A stretch of DNA of 36,119 nt, taken from IMG/VR virus record IMGVR_UViG_3300018414_000181, positions 1-36,119 of that record; one strand, 5' to 3'. The translations under genes and the position numbers were made by a program. Shown one piece after another: positions 25,272 through 33,258 of this stretch. Source of the DNA: a virus. Its lineage: Duplodnaviria > Caudoviricetes. The notes below the pieces were generated by a model. That model was not told the DNA's origin and made no database searches. It worked only from the letters and a program-made list of their open reading frames with translations. Positions within the stretch are counted from its first letter, which is position 1; each line of letters opens with the position of its first letter.

Positions 25272-27483
25272 AGCAAGGCTCCTCCTCCATCGGCGCCACC
25301 TGCAATGCAGATCCGCGCCCCCAGTTGGTCGGCTTCTGGTAGGCCCAGGGGCGTATACCACTCTTCGCGAGTGCCGGCATACGCCTCTTGCGCCACCCCA
25401 GCCGATGCATGATCGCACCTACGCGCATCTGCTCCGGCTTCCCCCAGTGACTGGGATCGATCTTCAGAACCTCGGACAGAATCTGACTGCCGGTGGTGGT
25501 CTCCCCCAGGTGTGACTCTTCCAACCACTTCAGGATAGGCACCTCCCATTCATCCACCACAAAGCGCTCTTCCTGCGCCTCGGCGAACAACGGCGCTTCG
25601 TCGCGAATCACCCACCAGATATCGCCAGCCTGATAGCAGAACATCGCCTCGGCCCAGAGCTGGTCGCGGATCTGCCGCAGTTGCTCCAGGTCGACCTTGG
25701 TGCAGGCCACAGGCCAATAACGCCGGTTGCCGGTGGCGTCCTTGAGGTATTCATCCTGGTTGGTGGTGCCCACGAAAACACACTGGCGTGGCACGTCCAT
25801 CGTTCTGCGGCCGTAGCTCTCACGGTAGGTGTCCACTGAGGCCGAGAAGAACTGCTTGGCCTTGGTCGATTCGGCCTTGTTGAAGCTGTCCAGCTCCCCC
25901 AGCTCGATAATCCACTTGCCCCGGATCGCCTGGAACGCATCCTTGTCGCCCAGGGTAAACGGCGTGTCCATAAACCACGAACCGCCGAGAATGCTCATCG
26001 CCGTAGACTTACCGGCGCCCTGGGCGCCTTCCAGAATCATCACCGAGTCCGCCTTGCACCCCGGAGCCATCACCCGGCCCACCGCCGAAACCATCCAGCG
26101 CTTGCCGACCTTTGAGCTGTAGTCGGTCGGTTCCACGCCCATGATCTCGGTGAGCCAGGAGTCGAGCCGGGGCACGCGGTCCCACTCCAGGCCGCGCAGG
26201 TAGTTGCGCACCGGGTGAAACGCCCGATAGTGCGCCACCACACTTACCGCCTCGATCACGTTGCCGACCTTGACCCGCAGGTTGTACTGCTGCGCGAGCC
26301 ACTTCATCACCAGCATGTCGTCGATGTCGGCCCAGTCGCCGGTGTCGCCGCCATAGGGCGGTACCCGCAGCTTGACGATCTTGGCGCTGAACGAACAGAA
26401 GCCGATCACCCCGGCCCAGCGCTCATCATTGCTCAGGATCAGTTCAACGTTCTGCATGTGCGCGATCAGCATGCCGCTGTCGCTGCGGGCCAACTGATCC
26501 CGCCAGCCGCCCGCGGCGGGTGGCCTGACCACCGCCAGCACCTGTCGACGCACCGCCTCCAAACCTTCGGCGCAGTGCAGGTCGTTGAAGTCGGTCCACT
26601 TGATCTCCCGCTCGCCGGAAAAGATCGGCGCCACCACCTGGCCACCGACCACCGTCGCCGCGTTTTCAGCACGCTCTCTGCCGGGGTTCCAGGGCTCACC
26701 GTTGGCCCGCTTGGTCTTCCAGTCATCATCTCGACAAACGATGATCGGGCACCCAGCAAAGCGCTCACGCATCGCCTTGCACACCGGCAAGAGGTTGCCT
26801 GCATCAAAGGCGATGGCCACGGTCAGCGAGGTCGCCATATGCAGGCTGGCGCCGGTGGCGTAGCCCTCACACACCAGCACCGGCTCGCCGGGCTCAGGGT
26901 GCGGACCGATCAGGTGGAAAGCGCCCTCTTTCGACAAGCCATAGGGCCAATAGGACTTGTCGCGCCCGGTGCCATCCTGCTTTTCGGGATAGATCACCTG
27001 CAAGCCGACAATCTGGTCACGTACGTTACTCATGGGCACCAGGAACGCACCCGAGCGCGGCGCATAGCGCACCCCGAAGCCCACCACTTGCTTGCGGTCC
27101 AGGTAGGTGCTCTTGCCCTTCTCCGGCATACGCTTGAACAACCCGGCGGCACGCTTTGCCGCACGACGCGCCGCATTGGCGGCCACCTCCGCCGCCCGGC
27201 GTTTCGCCTCTTCCTGCCGGGCGCGCATTACCTCACGCTCCTCGGCACTCATCCGCCCGGGTTTGACCTTGATCTTCTGCGTCACACCCGAACGCCAGTC
27301 GCCAAAGCTGCCGAAGATCAGGGTCTCGCCCTTCTCGGTGTAGTGCTCATGCACCACGTACCAGCCGTTTTTCTCCTTGCCTTTATCCTGCGCTGTCTTG
27401 CAGCGGGTGAGCTTGCCGAACACCAGTGGCTGCGCGGGCTCCAGGCCGTAATCGGCGAACTGCCCCAAGACCTCATCAAGCAT
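25264..27483 (-). CDS. Toprim primase fused to VapE/VirE-type helicase
   Basis: VCEGYATG and DDD Toprim motifs, TDFNDL, Walker A GAQGAGKST, WIIELGEL, GTTN...L.D.TGNRR. Confidence 0.93.
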   Translation of the reverse strand: MLDEVLGQFADYGLEPAQPLVFGKLTRCKTAQDKGKEKNGWYVVHEHYTEKGETLIFGSFGDWRSGVTQKIKVKPGRMSAEEREVMRARQEEAKRRAAEVAANAARRAAKRAAGLFKRMPEKGKSTYLDRKQVVGFGVRYAPRSGAFLVPMSNVRDQIVGLQVIYPEKQDGTGRDKSYWPYGLSKEGAFHLIGPHPEPGEPVLVCEGYATGASLHMATSLTVAIAFDAGNLLPVCKAMRERFAGCPIIVCRDDDWKTKRANGEPWNPGRERAENAATVVGGQVVAPIFSGEREIKWTDFNDLHCAEGLEAVRRQVLAVVRPPAAGGWRDQLARSDSGMLIAHMQNVELILSNDERWAGVIGFCSFSAKIVKLRVPPYGGDTGDWADIDDMLVMKWLAQQYNLRVKVGNVIEAVSVVAHYRAFHPVRNYLRGLEWDRVPRLDSWLTEIMGVEPTDYSSKVGKRWMVSAVGRVMAPGCKADSVMILEGAQGAGKSTAMSILGGSWFMDTPFTLGDKDAFQAIRGKWIIELGELDSFNKAESTKAKQFFSASVDTYRESYGRRTMDVPRQCVFVGTTNQDEYLKDATGNRRYWPVACTKVDLEQLRQIRDQLWAEAMFCYQAGDIWWVIRDEAPLFAEAQEERFVVDEWEVPILKWLEESHLGETTTGSQILSEVLKIDPSHWGKPEQMRVGAIMHRLGWRKRRMPALAKSGIRPWAYQKPTNWGRGSALQVAPMEEEPCFD

Positions 27484-27700
27484 GGCGGGCCCTCCGCACT
27501 TCATCGATCTCCTGACAGGTCACGCACAAGGTGCATCCGGGCTGCGCCAAGCGGCGCGCTTCGGGAATAGGACCGTCACAGTCTTCGCAGATGAGGAAGG
27601 AATGCACCGCCAGCTCAGGTCTCAGCAACTGACGCGCCGCGAGCGCTTGATCAAGGCGCTCTTGCACCAGATCGTTGGCAAAATCCGCAAGGTCAGCCAT
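27476..27700 (-). CDS. TraR/DksA C4 zinc-finger protein
   Basis: MADLADFA (DxxDxA); CEDC...IPEARR..PGC.LCVTCQ. Confidence 0.93.
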   Translation of the reverse strand: MADLADFANDLVQERLDQALAARQLLRPELAVHSFLICEDCDGPIPEARRLAQPGCTLCVTCQEIDEVRRARHA

Positions 27701-28211
27701 GGTCCGCCCCCCGAGTGGTCTGGTTGACGTAACTGGCGCGGTTAAACATGCCCAGCAGCCCCTGTATGCCGCGAAACACCTGCAGGCGGATTTCGGCCAA
27801 CTCGGCATCACTCACCACGCCATCGCCGATGCTTTTGGCCCAGGTGTCGGCCAGGTCGGCAACCTGACGGAAATACACAGCGATGCCCGTGGTCAGCGTC
27901 TCCGGCATGTCGTTGGTGTAAGCCTCGGCCAACTCCTGCCAGATCGTGTCCCCTACCAGGGCATGCACCGCATCGAGAATGCGCCGGTCCTTGGTCAGCT
28001 CCAGAATCTCGCCGAATTCTTGAATGTTGATGCTGTGGCTGGGATGGGTGGGAGACAGCTTGTGCTGCAGTGTGGTCGGGTTGCGGCCGGTGGTGGCGGC
28101 GATGGCAGCAGCGCCGCCGGGATAGTCCCGGGCAGCATGGTAAAGCGCGAGATCGAGCGGCAAGACTTCCCGCTTGGCCCGCTCAACAGAGTTCAGAGCA
28201 ATACGGCTCAT
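27693..28211 (-). CDS. Phage regulatory protein CII family
   Basis: YPGGAAAIA..GRNPTTLQHKLSP...H; AGGA RBS; downstream of cro. Confidence 0.8.
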   Translation of the reverse strand: MSRIALNSVERAKREVLPLDLALYHAARDYPGGAAAIAATTGRNPTTLQHKLSPTHPSHSINIQEFGEILELTKDRRILDAVHALVGDTIWQELAEAYTNDMPETLTTGIAVYFRQVADLADTWAKSIGDGVVSDAELAEIRLQVFRGIQGLLGMFNRASYVNQTTRGADHG

Positions 28212-28236
28212 GGCATTAATCCTAAAAGTTGCCAGT

Positions 28237-28536
28237 GCCGCGCGGTATGCAGTGGTGATACATTTGCCGCGTGGCTTGTAAGGGCCCAAACGCCGGCTAG
28301 GTCCGCAAGATCGACACCGGCACCGTGCCGAGGCGAACAATCCGTTGTTCACCTCTGGCGCAACAGCTGCCCAATCTGTGGTGGAGAAGGCAGCAACCCA
28401 AGGCTTCCGAGCCTTGAAAGCGCGGTTGAAGTAGACGTTTTTGCATGTGGTGTGCGCGCCTACCTAAACCGCGACCCGGCGACACTGTGGTGGTGTGTGC
28501 CGGGAGGAACTGGGCGGCCCTTGGGTCGCCTTTTTT
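28237..28536. ncRNA. Structured RNA element (hairpin array) in the cro-cII spacer; cis-leader and/or antisense sRNA
   Basis: Eight near-contiguous hairpins; four CACCAC loops and three GGA loops on the minus strand; terminator on the plus strand. Confidence 0.6.
28513..28536 (+). terminator. Intrinsic terminator antisense to the cro-cII transcript
   Basis: GGCGGCC-CTTG-GGTCGCC-TTTTTT; G-U pair and U-tract both indicate the plus strand. Confidence 0.7.
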
Positions 28537-28537
28537 C

Positions 28538-28729
28538 TTAGGCTGCTAACGCAGCATCTTGTTTCGTAGAGCTAACCTTTAGCTCCCCCCCAGATAGGGT
28601 CTGCAATTGGTACTGCCTCAATTGAGGTACACGCACACCCCATTGGGATACCGCCGCAGGGGAAATACCCAATGCAGCAGCCAGCTTCGATTTGCTCTTG
28701 AAAAATGTGACTGCATCTTCGGTGAGCAT
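28538..28729 (-). CDS. cro: Cro-like repressor
   Basis: 63 aa HTH: SKLAAALGISPAAVSQWG..VP.LRQYQL...SGGELK; divergent from cI. Confidence 0.92.
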   Translation of the reverse strand: MLTEDAVTFFKSKSKLAAALGISPAAVSQWGVRVPQLRQYQLQTLSGGELKVSSTKQDAALAA

Positions 28730-28760
28730 CAGGGCACTCCTTCAGTTACACAGCCAAAAT

Positions 28761-28830
28761 TTAAGAACATTTAAATTATTTTTGCAACAGCTAAACAAAA
28801 CTTAATTCCAAAGGATTTAAGCTAGCTTAA
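28761..28830. promoter_or_regulatory. OR-like operators TTAAG-N4-CTTAA between cro and cI
   Basis: TTAAGAACATTTAA (28761), degenerate site ending CTTAA (28792-28805), perfect palindrome TTAAGCTAGCTTAA (28817-28830). Confidence 0.7.
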
Positions 28831-29483
28831 TGAATATGTCCGAACGAATTGCCTACGCCCTGAGCACATCTGGCAAGCAACCAAGAGACCTCGCTAGAGA
28901 GATCGGGATTAGTGTTGCTCGCATAAGTCAATTGAAGGCTGGGTCCGGAGGCATAAAGGCAGAAAATCTATTCGCCTTTGCTCGCGCGACAAACTGCTCG
29001 GCACGATGGCTAGCAGAAGGTGCTGGAAAGCCAGAAGATGGGGATAGTACGCCAGCCCAAGACTTCACCATCATTCCCCCATACAGCACTAGAACGTCTG
29101 GCAACGGACAATTGAACGACAACGCAGGAGCCCCTTGCGGACTGGTATTCAAGCGTGAGTGGCTCAACCAGATGAATCTTGAAGAACGCAATCTCAAGGT
29201 TATATATAACCAAGGTGGCAGCATGGTGCCGACCTTGGCAGATGGCGATATGCTACTCCTTGATGAAAGCCAGACTGAGCCCTCGAATCGGCGGATCTTT
29301 GCCATTAGCCGTCCAGACGGTGAACTCACTATCAAACGACTTGTGCTCACAATGACCAACGGATGGATCATTCGTAGTGACAATGAAGACAAGCGTCAGT
29401 ATCCCGACGAGATCGCCTCAGAACAAGAAATACGCCACCTTCATATAGCAGGCAGAATCGTCTGGCATGGCGGAGCGCTTTAA
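28830..29483 (+). CDS. cI: CI-type repressor (HTH + S24 peptidase; PrtR-like)
   Basis: N-terminal HTH; G.SM.PTL.DGD catalytic Ser and IKRL catalytic Lys; IAGRIVWHGG C-terminus. Confidence 0.93.
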   Translation: MNMSERIAYALSTSGKQPRDLAREIGISVARISQLKAGSGGIKAENLFAFARATNCSARWLAEGAGKPEDGDSTPAQDFTIIPPYSTRTSGNGQLNDNAGAPCGLVFKREWLNQMNLEERNLKVIYNQGGSMVPTLADGDMLLLDESQTEPSNRRIFAISRPDGELTIKRLVLTMTNGWIIRSDNEDKRQYPDEIASEQEIRHLHIAGRIVWHGGAL

Positions 29484-29506
29484 AAAATCAAGATCAGGGA
29501 GCCCTT

Positions 29507-29899
29507 ATGACAACGAATGTCATCCGCAGCAAAAACGCCCCACAGAGAGCAGGGCTAACCCACGAAGAGATCTGGGACGGGCCAGACCAAGGACTAATTA
29601 TGTCGTGGGAGGTCGGACGCGCTCGTGCCATGACATATCCAGAGCTTGCCCAGCAGTGCCTGTCCGGCCAGCTTCCCATCTTGGGCTGGAAAGGGGGAGT
29701 ATCCCGGGCACTAAAAAAACGCGAAAAATTCGGTTCACTTAAGTACCTAGCGCAATGGCAGGGACTAAGGGGCGAAGATCTCAACATTGATTGCTCGAAG
29801 GAGCACACGCTTACCTGCACAAACACTGGGATGGCCGTTACGTTCACATCAGATAAGGCGAAATACGTCAATCAAAGCACGGAAAACGATAGCGATTAA
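29507..29899 (+). CDS. Hypothetical protein downstream of cI
   Basis: 130-aa ORF with AGGGAG RBS, 23 bp after the cI stop. Confidence 0.8.
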   Translation: MTTNVIRSKNAPQRAGLTHEEIWDGPDQGLIMSWEVGRARAMTYPELAQQCLSGQLPILGWKGGVSRALKKREKFGSLKYLAQWQGLRGEDLNIDCSKEHTLTCTNTGMAVTFTSDKAKYVNQSTENDSD

Positions 29900-29912
29900 G
29901 GAGAGACGCGAA

Positions 29913-30545
29913 ATGGTTGATTTGCATCAGGAATTTCAAAATAGCCGTTTTTTTCATGAGGCTCGCATAGACAGGCGATCTGTAGACGCACTGATCGGTA
30001 TTGCAGCAGGCATAACGGCCGATGGAAACATCAACGAAAAAGAAGCAATTTTTCTGAAAAACTGGATCAAAAGTAACCTAATTCATCTTGATGATCCTGT
30101 TGTAAACATCCTCTACCGGCGCCTGGACGATATGCTACGCGACGGGATCCTTGATTCTGATGAAGCAGCAGAACTACTGAGCCTCCTTAAGCAGTTCACA
30201 GGGATTCAGGAGGGGCCCGCAAAACTCTTCTCAGCTCCAACATCCCTACCCCTGAACAACCCTCCCCCCACCCTCTCCTGGGAAGACCAAGTATTTATGC
30301 TTACCGGGACAATGGCATATGGCCCTCGAAAACATTGCGAAGCCTTGATCACAGAGCGAGGTGGCCGTATTGGAGGCTCCGTTAGCAAGAAGGTTAATTT
30401 TCTGATTATCGGCAGCATTGGCAATGAACAATGGATGCACACAAGCTACGGGCTAAAAATCAAAAAAGCCGTTGAGCTCCGCGAAGCAGGTACGCCGATT
30501 TCGATCATCAGTGAGGAGCACTGGCAAAGAGCCATATTCGGATGA
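29913..30545 (+). CDS. TerB-like N-terminal domain + BRCT domain protein
   Basis: GITADGNINEKEAIFL and DGILDSDE (TerB-like acidic repeats); FMLTG...ITERGG....VSKKVNFLIIG...KIKKA..L....I.IISEEHW (BRCT); AAGGAG RBS. Confidence 0.85.
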   Translation: MVDLHQEFQNSRFFHEARIDRRSVDALIGIAAGITADGNINEKEAIFLKNWIKSNLIHLDDPVVNILYRRLDDMLRDGILDSDEAAELLSLLKQFTGIQEGPAKLFSAPTSLPLNNPPPTLSWEDQVFMLTGTMAYGPRKHCEALITERGGRIGGSVSKKVNFLIIGSIGNEQWMHTSYGLKIKKAVELREAGTPISIISEEHWQRAIFG

Positions 30546-30582
30546 GTGTCGCTCCAGACCACTACCGCAACCCGCCTAACTG

Positions 30583-30642
30583 GTAAGACCTCTTAAAGAA
30601 AAATTAAGAGATATTGACATTAATATTTAAGAGTTCTTTAAT
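30583..30642 (+). promoter_or_regulatory. PL-like sigma70 promoter with three operator sites
   Basis: TTGACA (30614)-N17-TTTAAT (30637); operators GTAAGACCTCTTAA (30583), TTAAGAGATATTGA (30604), TTAAGAGTTCTTTA (30627) match the OR consensus. Confidence 0.8.
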
Positions 30643-30677
30643 TTGCCTCACTCTTCACCACAGAGCGAGGCAATACC

Positions 30678-30857
30678 ATGCACACCACCGCCACACTGCA
30701 TGTCCATCCGGCATGTGCCAGAAACCCAAAACTGATCGAGCAGCTGCAATCCAGTACCGGCTGCCTGGTTGTTCTTCACGACAGAAAACTTAAGCTCGTG
30801 GCAAAAAAACGCGGGCCCTCCCCATTCGATCCGAACGGCGGAGGCGACGCAGCATGA
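30678..30857 (+). CDS. Small hypothetical protein, first gene of the early operon
   Basis: 59 aa (MHTTATLHVHPACARNPKLIEQLQ...GGGDAA), below the ORF-track cutoff; GAGG RBS; ATGA overlap with the next gene. Confidence 0.75.
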   Translation: MHTTATLHVHPACARNPKLIEQLQSSTGCLVVLHDRKLKLVAKKRGPSPFDPNGGGDAA

Positions 30858-31438
30858 GCAAATTCAGAGTAGACAACCGCACGCTGCAGTTGCTCAAGGC
30901 CCAGGTCAACCTGAGCGAAACCTTCCACCACACCCTGCGCGATTCACCACAGCGCACGGCGTTGAAGCTTCGGCTGAAGGTTGATCGCAACCCGGCAGAC
31001 ACCACTTTTGTTGTCGAGGTCGGCAGCGAACGCCACACGCTGACCCTGGCCAACGACAAGAAAGCCCACCTGAAGCTGGCTGACTTCATCGAAGAAATCG
31101 CCAACGGCCCAATCGATCCTAACGCCGAGCTGGCTCCACCACGGCACGCCGAGCGCGTGTTCGGAGCCTTCAGCGCCCAACAGCGCGAGCAGGTGTTTGG
31201 TGTGGTGTGCCTGGGTGGCTTCCTCGATCTGGATCTCGGGTTTGAACTGCCGATTCGTCTGGCCGTGCACCGCACCCGAACGCGCAAGGGCGTCACCGTT
31301 ATCCTGAGCATCGGCATCAAAAGCCCACGGACCAAATGCTTCACCGTCTCGGGCAGCGACGTGCAGATGTACCAGGATGTCTGCGAATCCATCCTTCACT
31401 TGGCAGCGCTGGCGACTCCCGCCGCGCACGCTGCTTAG
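30854..31438 (+). CDS. Hypothetical phage protein
   Basis: 194-aa ORF, GGAGG RBS, translationally coupled. Confidence 0.8.
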   Translation: MSKFRVDNRTLQLLKAQVNLSETFHHTLRDSPQRTALKLRLKVDRNPADTTFVVEVGSERHTLTLANDKKAHLKLADFIEEIANGPIDPNAELAPPRHAERVFGAFSAQQREQVFGVVCLGGFLDLDLGFELPIRLAVHRTRTRKGVTVILSIGIKSPRTKCFTVSGSDVQMYQDVCESILHLAALATPAAHAA

Positions 31439-31447
31439 GAGGCGGTC

Positions 31448-31732
31448 ATGGATCGCAACCTCAAGGAAACGGCCCGGTACTTCGGCATCACACGACCGCA
31501 TCTGATCAGCCTGATGCAAGAGAAAGGCTTGCTCGACGCTGAGCGACTGCCAGCCTATCCAACGCGCGACCGTGAGTACCTGGGAACCAAGGAAGGCAAA
31601 TGGTTCCACCCGGAGCTGGGCCTGCAGTACAGCCAGTCAACGCGGGTTCGACAGGCCGGCATTCCCTGGCTCGCCGAGCAACTGGGCCTCGCCCTGCCCG
31701 CTATCCCGGCAGATCGCCGTGACGTGGCCTAG
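31448..31732 (+). CDS. Antirepressor KilAC (ANT) domain protein
   Basis: LKETARYFGITR..L...M.EKG.L....LP.......YL..KE...STRV.Q.GI.WL. Confidence 0.75.
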   Translation: MDRNLKETARYFGITRPHLISLMQEKGLLDAERLPAYPTRDREYLGTKEGKWFHPELGLQYSQSTRVRQAGIPWLAEQLGLALPAIPADRRDVA

Positions 31733-31898
31733 GGAGTACGCCCGCCAGATCATCGCCTTACGGACCAAAGAGGAGCGCAACGCTGCGCTCCTTGAGGTAC
31801 CCGAGCATCTGCGCGAGCTGACCAAAGCCCACTGCCTGATTACCTGGAACCACCCGAAACGCCGCCAGCGCATGGAGAGCCAGCAAGCCAATGAGTAA
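31719..31898 (+). CDS. Small hypothetical phage protein
   Basis: WPREYARQIIALRTKEERNAALLEVPEHLRELTK; overlaps both neighbours. Confidence 0.65.
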   Translation: MTWPREYARQIIALRTKEERNAALLEVPEHLRELTKAHCLITWNHPKRRQRMESQQANE

Positions 31899-32217
31899 CG
31901 CCAACCAGACCCCGCTGCGCCTGATGCCAGCACCGGAAACCGCCACCGTCGAGCTGCTGTATCGCACCTTCGGCGATGTACTGATCCCGCTGGAAAAGAT
32001 CCGTGTGCAGTACTTCCGCAACCTCAACGAACAGTCGTTCGCCGCCGAGATCAGCAGCGGTCGCATTCAACTGCCCGTCACCACCCTGGACAGCAGCCGC
32101 AAGGCGCCGAAGTACGCACACATCCGCCACATTGCCGCACTGATCGACATCCGCGCCTACCGGGCGGATGAAGAACACGCCAAGCAACAGCACGACGCCA
32201 ACGAGCACGACCAATAA
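31891..32217 (+). CDS. Pyocin activator PrtN family protein
   Basis: TVELLYRTFGDVLIPLE....YF..L....F......G.I.LP.....S.KAP...HI..IA..ID. Confidence 0.8.
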   Translation: MSNANQTPLRLMPAPETATVELLYRTFGDVLIPLEKIRVQYFRNLNEQSFAAEISSGRIQLPVTTLDSSRKAPKYAHIRHIAALIDIRAYRADEEHAKQQHDANEHDQ

Positions 32218-32261
32218 CCCAACGGCTGCCACCACCAGCCAAACCCACCGGAGCACACCAC

Positions 32262-32681
32262 ATGACCCACATACAGATCATTGCCCTGATCGGCCTGATA
32301 CTCACCGTCGCCCTGCTCTACTGGGCCGGCTACCTGATTGGCCGAAGCAATGGCCGAGCAACCGGGATCGAGGAAGGCAAAGCCGTTGCCGAAGCGGACA
32401 ACGCAAGAGCCATGCGCGAGCTGACAACCGCCCTCAAGTTCGTGCGAGCCGATAACCAAAGGCTGGCTCAACTGCACAAGCACCTGCAGGACAGCCAAGC
32501 CCTCAAGCCAGCACACCGGCAGAACTTGCTGGCAATCGCGGATCTGCTGCGCATTGCCGCCGAGACATTCAGCGCCTTCAAAACCGGAAAAAAACTCGAA
32601 AGAGACTCGCGCTCGCTGCGCGATCAAGCCCTGGCAATGGCCGCCCTAGTGGAGCCAGCAGCAAAGGAGGAAGCGGCATGA
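32262..32681 (+). CDS. Hypothetical membrane-anchored coiled-coil protein
   Basis: N-terminal TM helix, GGAG RBS. Confidence 0.75.
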   Translation: MTHIQIIALIGLILTVALLYWAGYLIGRSNGRATGIEEGKAVAEADNARAMRELTTALKFVRADNQRLAQLHKHLQDSQALKPAHRQNLLAIADLLRIAAETFSAFKTGKKLERDSRSLRDQALAMAALVEPAAKEEAA

Positions 32682-33019
32682 GCCAGCAGATCGATGGACC
32701 AGCCCGCTATCAGAAACCGGAGGAAAGCGGCATGCCGCACGCTCAGCCCACCGCCCGAGCCATGACCGCTTTGCTCCGCAACGCCGCCAGCGTCGACGCT
32801 CAGAAAACAAAGAGCCTCTGCTGCGTAGCAGCAGGCATTACTGCTCTTGCCCGCAGCACCACCGAGGTACGTATACCCCACGCAAAGCTGCGCGGGGCAG
32901 CCACCACTGGAGCAACGCTGATCGCTCAGAGTGGCCCGCTCGCGCAGCTTGCTCAGGGGTATAAGCCTCCCTCAACGATCAAGGGTTATCAGTCAGAGCA
33001 ACAGGCTCAGGAGGCATAA
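32678..33019 (+). CDS. Hypothetical protein
   Basis: 113-aa ORF with AGGAGG RBS and ATGA overlap. Confidence 0.55.
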   Translation: MSQQIDGPARYQKPEESGMPHAQPTARAMTALLRNAASVDAQKTKSLCCVAAGITALARSTTEVRIPHAKLRGAATTGATLIAQSGPLAQLAQGYKPPSTIKGYQSEQQAQEA

Positions 33020-33021
33020 CA

Positions 33022-33258
33022 ATGGAACTACAAAGCGAAACCCTGGCCGACGAAGAGCTCGCAACCATCACGGGTTATCAGCTCCCGTCCAAACAAATCC
33101 AATGGCTGACCAACAACCATTGGGAGTTTGTTCTGACCGGTGCCCGACGTCCCATCGTTGGCCGGGTTTACGCCAGGATGAAGTTAGCCGGCGTTAAACC
33201 CTCTGCAGCTAGTGCCGTGACTGAAGTCTGGTCACTCAACCTTGCGAATGTGAGCTGA
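33022..33258 (+). CDS. DUF4224 family putative excisionase
   Basis: L..EELATITGY.....QI.WL.......F.....RPIVGR; immediately upstream of the integrase. Confidence 0.85.
   Translation: MELQSETLADEELATITGYQLPSKQIQWLTNNHWEFVLTGARRPIVGRVYARMKLAGVKPSAASAVTEVWSLNLANVS

Follow-up and report, generated by a model that had tools for sequence, protein, structure and literature searches.

A conserved multi-hairpin element between cro and cII as a candidate antisense small RNA against early-left gene starts in a prophage family

The window analyzed here is a 36,119-nucleotide stretch of a Caudoviricetes virus (IMG/VR record IMGVR_UViG_3300018414_000181, positions 1 to 36,119), and the record behind it is of the provirus type. 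The closest named relative, in a Pseudomonas genome, has a CII 99% identical to that of the window. The switch region runs in the order cII (minus strand), a 326-nt gap, cro (minus), cI (plus), two cargo ORFs, and an early-left operon (plus). The cII gene (27693..28211, minus) encodes a 186-type activator (Pfam Phage_CP76, phrog_101), cro (28538..28729, minus) matched Pfam P22_Cro, and the cI repressor gene (28830..29483, plus) combines an HTH with a peptidase S24 domain. After cI, at 29507-30545, lie the cargo ORFs of 130 amino acids (no family) and 210 amino acids (phrog_3989, with a weak BRCT match), which are possible defence or accessory genes. A TraR/DksA zinc-finger gene (27476-27700) accompanies a PrtN-like gene (31891-32217) in the window, a pairing also seen in the pyocin regulatory region.

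The early-left operon reads ORF 30678, ORF 30854, an antirepressor KilAC-domain ORF, ORF 31719, a PrtN-like ORF, ORF 32262, xis, and int. A candidate promoter (TTGACA, 17 nt, TTTAAT; 30614..30642, plus) was read by eye; a consensus promoter scan reported neither this candidate nor the predicted spacer promoter described below. The first ORF (30678..30857, plus, 59 amino acids) has a stop that overlaps the start of the conserved 194-amino-acid ORF 30854 (30854..31438, plus). The KilAC-domain ORF (31448..31732, plus) scored just below the Pfam cut-off, and the PrtN-like ORF (31891..32217, plus) has excisionase-family matches. For the whole proteins of ORFs 30678 and 30854, searches of the atlas, Pfam, PDB sequences, folds, and representatives named no function; ORF 30854 has about 99 relatives at 50% clustering.

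Relatives were collected by CII from viral loci (80 of 452) and genome loci (80 of 111). A P. aeruginosa phage CII matched a further 37 loci, and a promoter pattern brought in 120 of about 610 loci; three phage records and 36 of the 64 matches in 401 family genomes, picked for divergence, completed the set. A CII match was present in 324 loci and the flank was sufficient in 255, which were reduced to 62 representatives: 25 close (clade A), 21 middle (clade B), and 16 distant (clade C). In relatives, the cro-cI-cargo block is replaced exactly between the end of the spacer terminator (28538) and the first target site (30656), and the spacer element and its targets are kept. With the window Cro as query, a Cro match was found beside 1 of the 142 other unique spacers.

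An earlier note on this DNA had described six hairpins with CACCAC loops, four of them in the cro-cII spacer. All six were recovered where that note had placed them, and all fold with CACCAC exposed, the first spacer hairpin (28504-28475) having its best fold in a shifted register with a 9-nt loop and the early-left hairpin at 30651-30665 being marginal by itself (-0.7 kcal/mol). CACCAC is common in the window (55 copies), which would favour chance as an explanation, and CACCAC hairpins beyond these six exist, 7 of the copies having stems of at least 4 bp, including those at 31000, 28095, and 11100. The 268-nt spacer holds 4 such loops, while 5,000 dinucleotide shuffles gave a maximum of 2. 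With any 6-mer allowed in the loop, none of 2,000 shuffles exceeded 3, a value reached once, and 3 was also the highest count among 536 window tiles. The fold z-score of the spacer is -4.67 for the minus strand and -4.01 for the plus strand, and the fold energy is lower on the plus strand (-145.5 versus -138.5). We also found two unstructured CACCAC copies at start codons, at 30680-30689 and 32253-32264, that the earlier note had overlooked.

Conservation pointed the same way. All 143 unique spacers (161 loci) carry at least one CACCAC and most have four to six, with spacer identity among 31 representatives at 77-88%. Both sides of the stem had changed in 27 of 82 consensus pairs across 22 sequences, a count that is inflated by relatedness according to the tool's own warning but was reached by 0 of 500 shuffles, and slid controls gave 5-10. 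The spacer hairpins are thus real and conserved, and the account by which they are chance products or DNA-level repeats, such as operators or origin iterons, is hardly credible in view of the shuffles, the covariation, the start-codon placement, and the co-change of loops and sites reported below. A protein-coding role for the spacer was also considered; it contains short ORFs, but this role is unlikely because relatives carry one-base indels inside them. In blastn, the spacer had no match among 50,697 phage records.

A model of the element (R1) recovers the predicted spacer RNA in 20 clade A/B relatives. It did not reach the clade C elements or that of the Halomonas phage L164, and their homology therefore rests on position and logic, not on sequence. 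Two variant architectures were seen. In loci L199, L333, L337, and L339, the stretch separating the cII start from the promoter contains a further array of hairpins with GUGGUGG loops, on the antisense strand and about 200 nt past the cII start, so that the element looks tandem. The cro-cII gaps of L343-L357, from a distant CII clade, have a shorter element with loop codes GUCAGAG, GUGAGAG, GUAAGAG, and GUGGUAGG, a different promoter repeat, and a 5' guide lying over the SD-AUG of up to four genes.

We then asked which strand of the spacer is the functional one. Overlapping the cII start is an inverted repeat, TGGCA-N14-TGCCA (28211..28234), which is a predicted CII site. It occurs once in the window, and one copy alone is within chance expectation; an exact-pattern search gave no second CII repeat near int. 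A predicted extended -10 (TG-n-TACATT, 28256..28264, plus) puts the predicted start at about 28271, from which the half sites are centred near -58 and -39. The CII of phage 186 is described as binding at -38 and -58 of pE (PMC6593788), and the spacer shows the same pE-type layout relative to its predicted start, with a repeat about two turns apart near -38/-58, then a -10, convergent with the lytic transcript. The promoter repeat is conserved in 44 of 46 clade A/B representatives (right half present). In all 44 anchored A/B representatives, TAnnnT lies 23 nt (17 representatives) or 24 nt (27 representatives) past TGCCA, and it lies at none of 10 other offsets tested; it is mostly preceded by TG, while the bases between the repeat and TAnnnT vary. 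In ten of the 16 clade C representatives a different repeat stands at the same distance of 24 nt. The repeat predicted to be bound by CII differs in sequence between CII clades. CII would be the activator of the predicted plus-strand spacer promoter.

At the opposite end of the spacer, a terminator scan identified an intrinsic terminator on the plus strand (28512..28538, a GC stem with a T run at 28531-28536), and sequence conservation among relatives stops there. The plus-strand terminator is found in 24/25 clade A, 9/21 clade B, and 0/16 clade C representatives, and a minus-strand terminator in 3/25, 2/21, and none, respectively. In the window, the scan found no terminator on the minus strand of the spacer and one weak plus-strand site inside ORF 30678. 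Together, promoter, terminator, fold, and covariation delimit a predicted multi-hairpin small RNA of about 268 nt (28271..28538, plus), antisense to the cro-cII message and presenting three UGUGGUG loops. On these sequence features, we consider it very probable that a plus-strand spacer RNA is made. The earlier note had treated the minus strand as the functional one, which is probably wrong given that a predicted plus-strand promoter and a terminator bracket the spacer. The minus strand of the spacer is part of the cro-cII message, but the statement of the note that the loops always lie in the transcribed orientation is incomplete, in that the spacer carries a predicted promoter and a terminator of its own on the plus strand. 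A search of sequencing runs with a 5.7-kb query returned 24 runs, all contigs, 1 of which is on record as RNA; the eight examined gave no transcript of the element, being long contigs across the spacer and its neighbours, most probably DNA, that carry nothing on strand, ends, or level, and a query of this length probably hid small-RNA runs.

The G-U pairs noted earlier as favouring the minus strand were borne out by the counts, with 159 wobble cells for minus versus 104 for plus among 31 representatives and 237 versus 194 wobble events on the spacer tree. However, this bias comes mainly from hairpin P2 (28327..28359; 66:12 for minus), the guide hairpins being mixed and the last hairpin favouring plus (35:3). 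Wobble counts therefore leave the strand unsettled and lean slightly to minus. P2 has a UCCG loop on the plus strand and an ACGGAU, Rsm-like loop on the minus strand, and hairpin P3 (28398..28417) likewise reads UCCG on plus and NCGGAN on minus, with compensatory changes at 5 of 7 pairs. The UCC of these loops on the plus strand could also pair with an SD. The fuller CsrA consensus is ANGGA in hairpin loops. When the UCC-loop hairpins of 46 representatives were read on the minus strand, A preceded NGGA in 56 of 64 (the GGA being fixed by the search pattern), consistent with the GGA-in-loop rule described for Rsm/CsrA sites (PMC4353343). The Rfam model of the Rsm/CsrA-type TwoAYGGAY RNA (RF01731) had no match in the spacer. 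Through the two ANGGA loops on the minus strand, a host Rsm protein might act on the cro-cII leader.

Having a candidate RNA, we examined its loops against the 59 gene starts of the window. Guide hairpin C (28366..28394, plus; loop UGUGGUG at 28377-28383) has the ORF 30678 leader as its best partner (-22.5 kcal/mol, rank 1 of 59), where target 1, a CACCAC-loop hairpin (30651..30665, plus), sits just 5' of the SD. Guide hairpin A (28475..28504, plus) pairs best with the first codons of the same ORF (-22.3 kcal/mol, rank 1 of 59), and its complement is target 1b (30678..30689, plus). Guide hairpin B (28421..28473, plus) includes at 28444-28455 a perfect 12-nt complement of 32253-32264 and also ranks 1 of 59, at the start of ORF 32262; this site, target 2b, is the SD-to-AUG stretch (32250..32264, plus). 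Two of the best sites, those over the SD and AUG, are not hairpins. Target 2a, the conserved CACCAC-loop hairpin 5' of ORF 32262 (32224..32240, plus), has no perfect spacer complement of at least 9 nt. The fourth spacer hairpin of the earlier note (28237..28275, minus; loop TCACCAC) straddles the predicted plus-strand promoter and can fold only on the cII leader; it is a possible target there, and its CACCAC loop is lost in distant relatives.

Complementarity of this kind extends across the family. Perfect matches of at least 12 nt between the plus-strand RNA and start windows numbered 62 sites in 45 of the 62 representatives, with 14 outside the windows, compared to 3 for the minus strand, 4 for a cII control, and 1.3 for shuffles. 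The first gene could be placed by homology in 49 of the 62 representatives, and there the mean length of the longest complement is 12.4 nt with the plus strand and 6.7 nt with the minus strand. On clade C targets, the complements of clade A/B RNAs are only about 7 nt long, while those of the clade C RNAs themselves measure 11.2 nt (5 loci). Guide-target matches extend over 12-17 nt, into the stems. At L323, L342, and L351 there was no clear guide match at the first gene. Match counts alone cannot separate pairing from repeated protein sites, because a complement of the plus strand is an identity with the minus strand.

Co-change of loops and sites separates the two, since a single protein behind it would need to recognise two different codes in each phage and to change them at will. 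For loop B and its site, 141 of 161 clade A loci could be called; both had changed in 8 and neither in 133, with two positions changed in each of loop and site. In the three of these variants inspected (L092, L106, and L132), the old code persists in loops A and C as well as in the leader sites. For loop C and its site, called in 146 loci, both had changed in 22, neither in 120, and 4 were discordant. On the spacer tree, the loop B and loop C changes each trace to a single event within clade A (on the cII tree, to 3 and 2 events, respectively), and the 8 and 22 loci therefore cannot be counted as independent cases. The loop B variant with its matching site recurs in L330, L335, and the Halomonas phage L164, which fall in separate parts of the CII tree and could be linked by module exchange. 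The distant phages L343, L344, L346, L347, L349, L353, and L355 use other codes, and each of these phages carries the matching sites, near -25 or -45 as well as over the SD-AUG. Within the target ORF 30678, Thr3 is encoded by ACC in 144 of the 145 loci, whereas all four codons occur at Thr4, so the Thr3 codon is under synonymous constraint. Taken together, the loop-site co-change and the Thr3 constraint show what reads, at the level of sequence, as continuing selection on the match.

We have demonstrated a conserved structure, a promoter signature and terminator that bracket it on the plus strand, complementarity to gene starts, and co-change of loops and sites. The explanation we favour, and consider probable, is that the plus strand of the cro-cII spacer encodes a small RNA, about 268 nt long, with three GUGGUG loops that pair with early-left starts and block their translation. 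The earlier note had offered antisense pairing as one of two options, and the pairing is supported; the antisense RNA, however, would be the plus strand of the spacer itself, which makes three of the four spacer hairpins guide loops rather than targets. In the proposed sequence of events, CII made from the early lytic transcript would turn on the plus-strand promoter, and a c4-like RNA would act in trans on the early-left operon. That CII switches on this RNA from a pE-like promoter, perhaps with some basal activity through the extended -10, seems to us reasonably likely. Somewhat more confidently, we expect ORF 30678 to be clamped by loop C at its leader and by loop A at its first codons, and the SD-AUG of ORF 32262 to be covered by loop B, so that initiation fails and overlapping downstream genes fall. 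ORF 30678 would be bound at two sites and ORF 32262 at its SD-AUG, and ORF 30854, the antirepressor-like ORF, the PrtN-like ORF, and xis would be lowered with them. During establishment, early-left functions would be held back while CI accumulates, and lysogeny would be favoured. The lytic cro-cII message, a full complement, would neutralise or remove the RNA in lytic growth, and the minus strand may have a role of its own through its two Rsm-like GGA loops. Repression is the direction of control suggested by the sites covering SD and AUG; binding might instead activate, because the ORF 30678 leader hairpin can bury the SD.

Other readings of the same sequences were weighed. The other option of the earlier note was a boxB/nut-like site for an antiterminator, and a general form of it, in which a phage RNA-binding protein (an antiterminator or translational repressor) recognises the CACCAC loops of the two early messages and the minus-strand spacer is a nut-like array or sponge, is in our judgment unlikely. 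ORF 30854 would be the candidate binder. It is conserved in 25/25 clade A, 18/21 clade B, and 10/16 clade C representatives, and the wobbles lean to the minus strand as this reading would have it. Its predicted structure, with two beta4-alpha units, may resemble the PUR/Whirly/MRP nucleic-acid binders (top Foldseek matches PUR-alpha, MRP1/2, Whirly, and dsRBDs), but the resemblance is weak and non-significant (best E 3.7e-3, TM about 0.2), and a wide structural search gave unrelated folds at Z of at most 6.2. As in the earlier note, no N homologue was recognised, 17 ORFs giving no N-family match, and the antiterminator option found little support. One loop can change together with its site and leave the other loops and sites as they were, at least two codes occur per phage and many across phages, the matches run into the stems, the SD-AUG sites are not hairpins, and the plus-strand promoter and terminator are left unexplained.

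Two further readings keep the locus and alter what it does. The same plus-strand RNA would activate ORF 30678 if it opened the SD-burying leader hairpin, in the manner described for IsrK and orf45 (PMC4825925). The SD lies in the outer stem of this hairpin in 24 of 25 clade A leaders, and loop C invades the inner stem; the corresponding inverted repeat around target 1 (30644-30673) buries the SD if transcribed. However, because the candidate promoter starts near 30650, the outer arm may stay untranscribed, and the repeat may be a DNA site instead. With loops A and B covering first codons and SD-AUG, and the main guides of clade C covering the SD-AUG of several genes, activation is doubtful, and slightly more so than recognition by a protein. 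Less plausible again is that the plus-strand promoter is only the cI establishment promoter (pE/pRE), that the selected structure is a cro-cII leader bound by host RsmA/E at GGA loops, and that the early-left matches are old duplications. The A before NGGA, the P2 wobbles toward minus, and the many distant relatives without a plus-strand terminator are all accommodated by that account. It is at odds with the terminator that 24 of 25 clade A representatives have ahead of cro, with the continuing selection indicated above, and with P3, whose closing pair is swapped from A-U to U-A in 15 of 31 representatives, losing the Rsm A but keeping the pairing.

If translational repression by the spacer RNA is correct, the lambda-like switches in many Pseudomonas prophages would include a second repressor, an RNA produced from a CII-controlled establishment promoter, and this RNA brake would add to the choice between dormancy and lysis. 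Such wiring is not known to us from lambda or 186. The natural loop and target variants are ready-made compensatory pairs and open the mechanism to direct testing. Where phages with different repressors share the code, cross-immunity is predicted that could not be foreseen from their CI sequences. A bolder reading, less likely than not, is that this large Pseudomonadaceae/Halomonas prophage family uses a re-programmable multi-guide RNA from the establishment promoter that silences several early-left genes through a repeatedly rewritten two-site code. As the cro-cI cassette is exchanged among relatives and both RNA and targets are retained, the RNA of a lysogen would then also silence heteroimmune relatives, and ORF 30854 would perhaps be a matchmaker or antagonist.

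The earlier note had set the hairpins apart from characterised Rfam families, and this agrees with the Rfam searches, which at gathering score gave nothing in the window or 10 relatives and at E of at most 10 gave 0 matches over 28000-33100 and 3 chance matches (E 1.2-9.2) over the spacer. The covariance model of C4 antisense RNA (RF01695) had 0 matches at E of at most 10 in the window. In the papers searched we found no description of the spacer RNA, although supplementary catalogues of Pseudomonas sRNAs could list it. The nearest systems are the c4-icd-ant mechanism of P1/P7 and the CI RNA of P4. Likeness lies in short exposed segments complementary to paired sites on an early message with an antirepressor gene (here the KilAC-domain ORF), as in the pairing of P4 CI RNA with seqA and seqC (PMC4825925) and in the catalogued c4 and its a1/b1 targets (PMC2864571). 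Pairing by C4 or P4 CI RNA leads to a translation block or to premature termination. Unlike c4, whose RF01695 model has 87 positions, the spacer RNA is about 268 nt. P4 CI RNA is described as processed from the transcript it controls (PMC4825925), whereas the spacer RNA has its own predicted promoter and terminator, separate from the controlled transcript. It also has three guide loops and is separated by cro and cI from its targets, which are 2-4 kb away, the early-left leader lying 2.1 kb downstream of the element.

Lambda pRE is a comparable establishment promoter. The closer likeness is to 186 pE, in a promoter that faces the lytic transcript at the cII start beside a 186-type cII, with its repeat near -38/-58 (PMC6593788). 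However, pE drives cI, while the spacer terminator precedes cro in most close relatives, so the product of the spacer promoter would be a small RNA. Lambda nut boxB and HK022 put are hairpins early in both early operons. They differ from the spacer hairpins, whose loops are not GNRA-like, whose sites overlap start codons, and beside which no N homologue was found; since loops and sites change together, we favour pairing over boxB-like recognition. The phage RNAs sar, OOP, and aQ are transcribed from the strand opposite their own target. In contrast, the main targets of the spacer RNA are remote and matched by guides of 9-17 nt. All the same, it resembles P22 sar, lambda OOP, and aQ as a phage RNA tuning lysis and lysogeny by pairing, sar being described as blocking ant translation and aQ as transcribed from a CII-dependent promoter (PMC12197685). 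Gifsy-1 IsrK is likewise described as a prophage small RNA acting in trans at two places on a phage early message (PMC4825925). It differs in being the 5' portion of the very transcript that it targets and in acting as an activator, and the spacer is without an Rfam match. Taken together, we believe that the spacer RNA, apparently undescribed in the papers searched, would be a form of phage antisense control.
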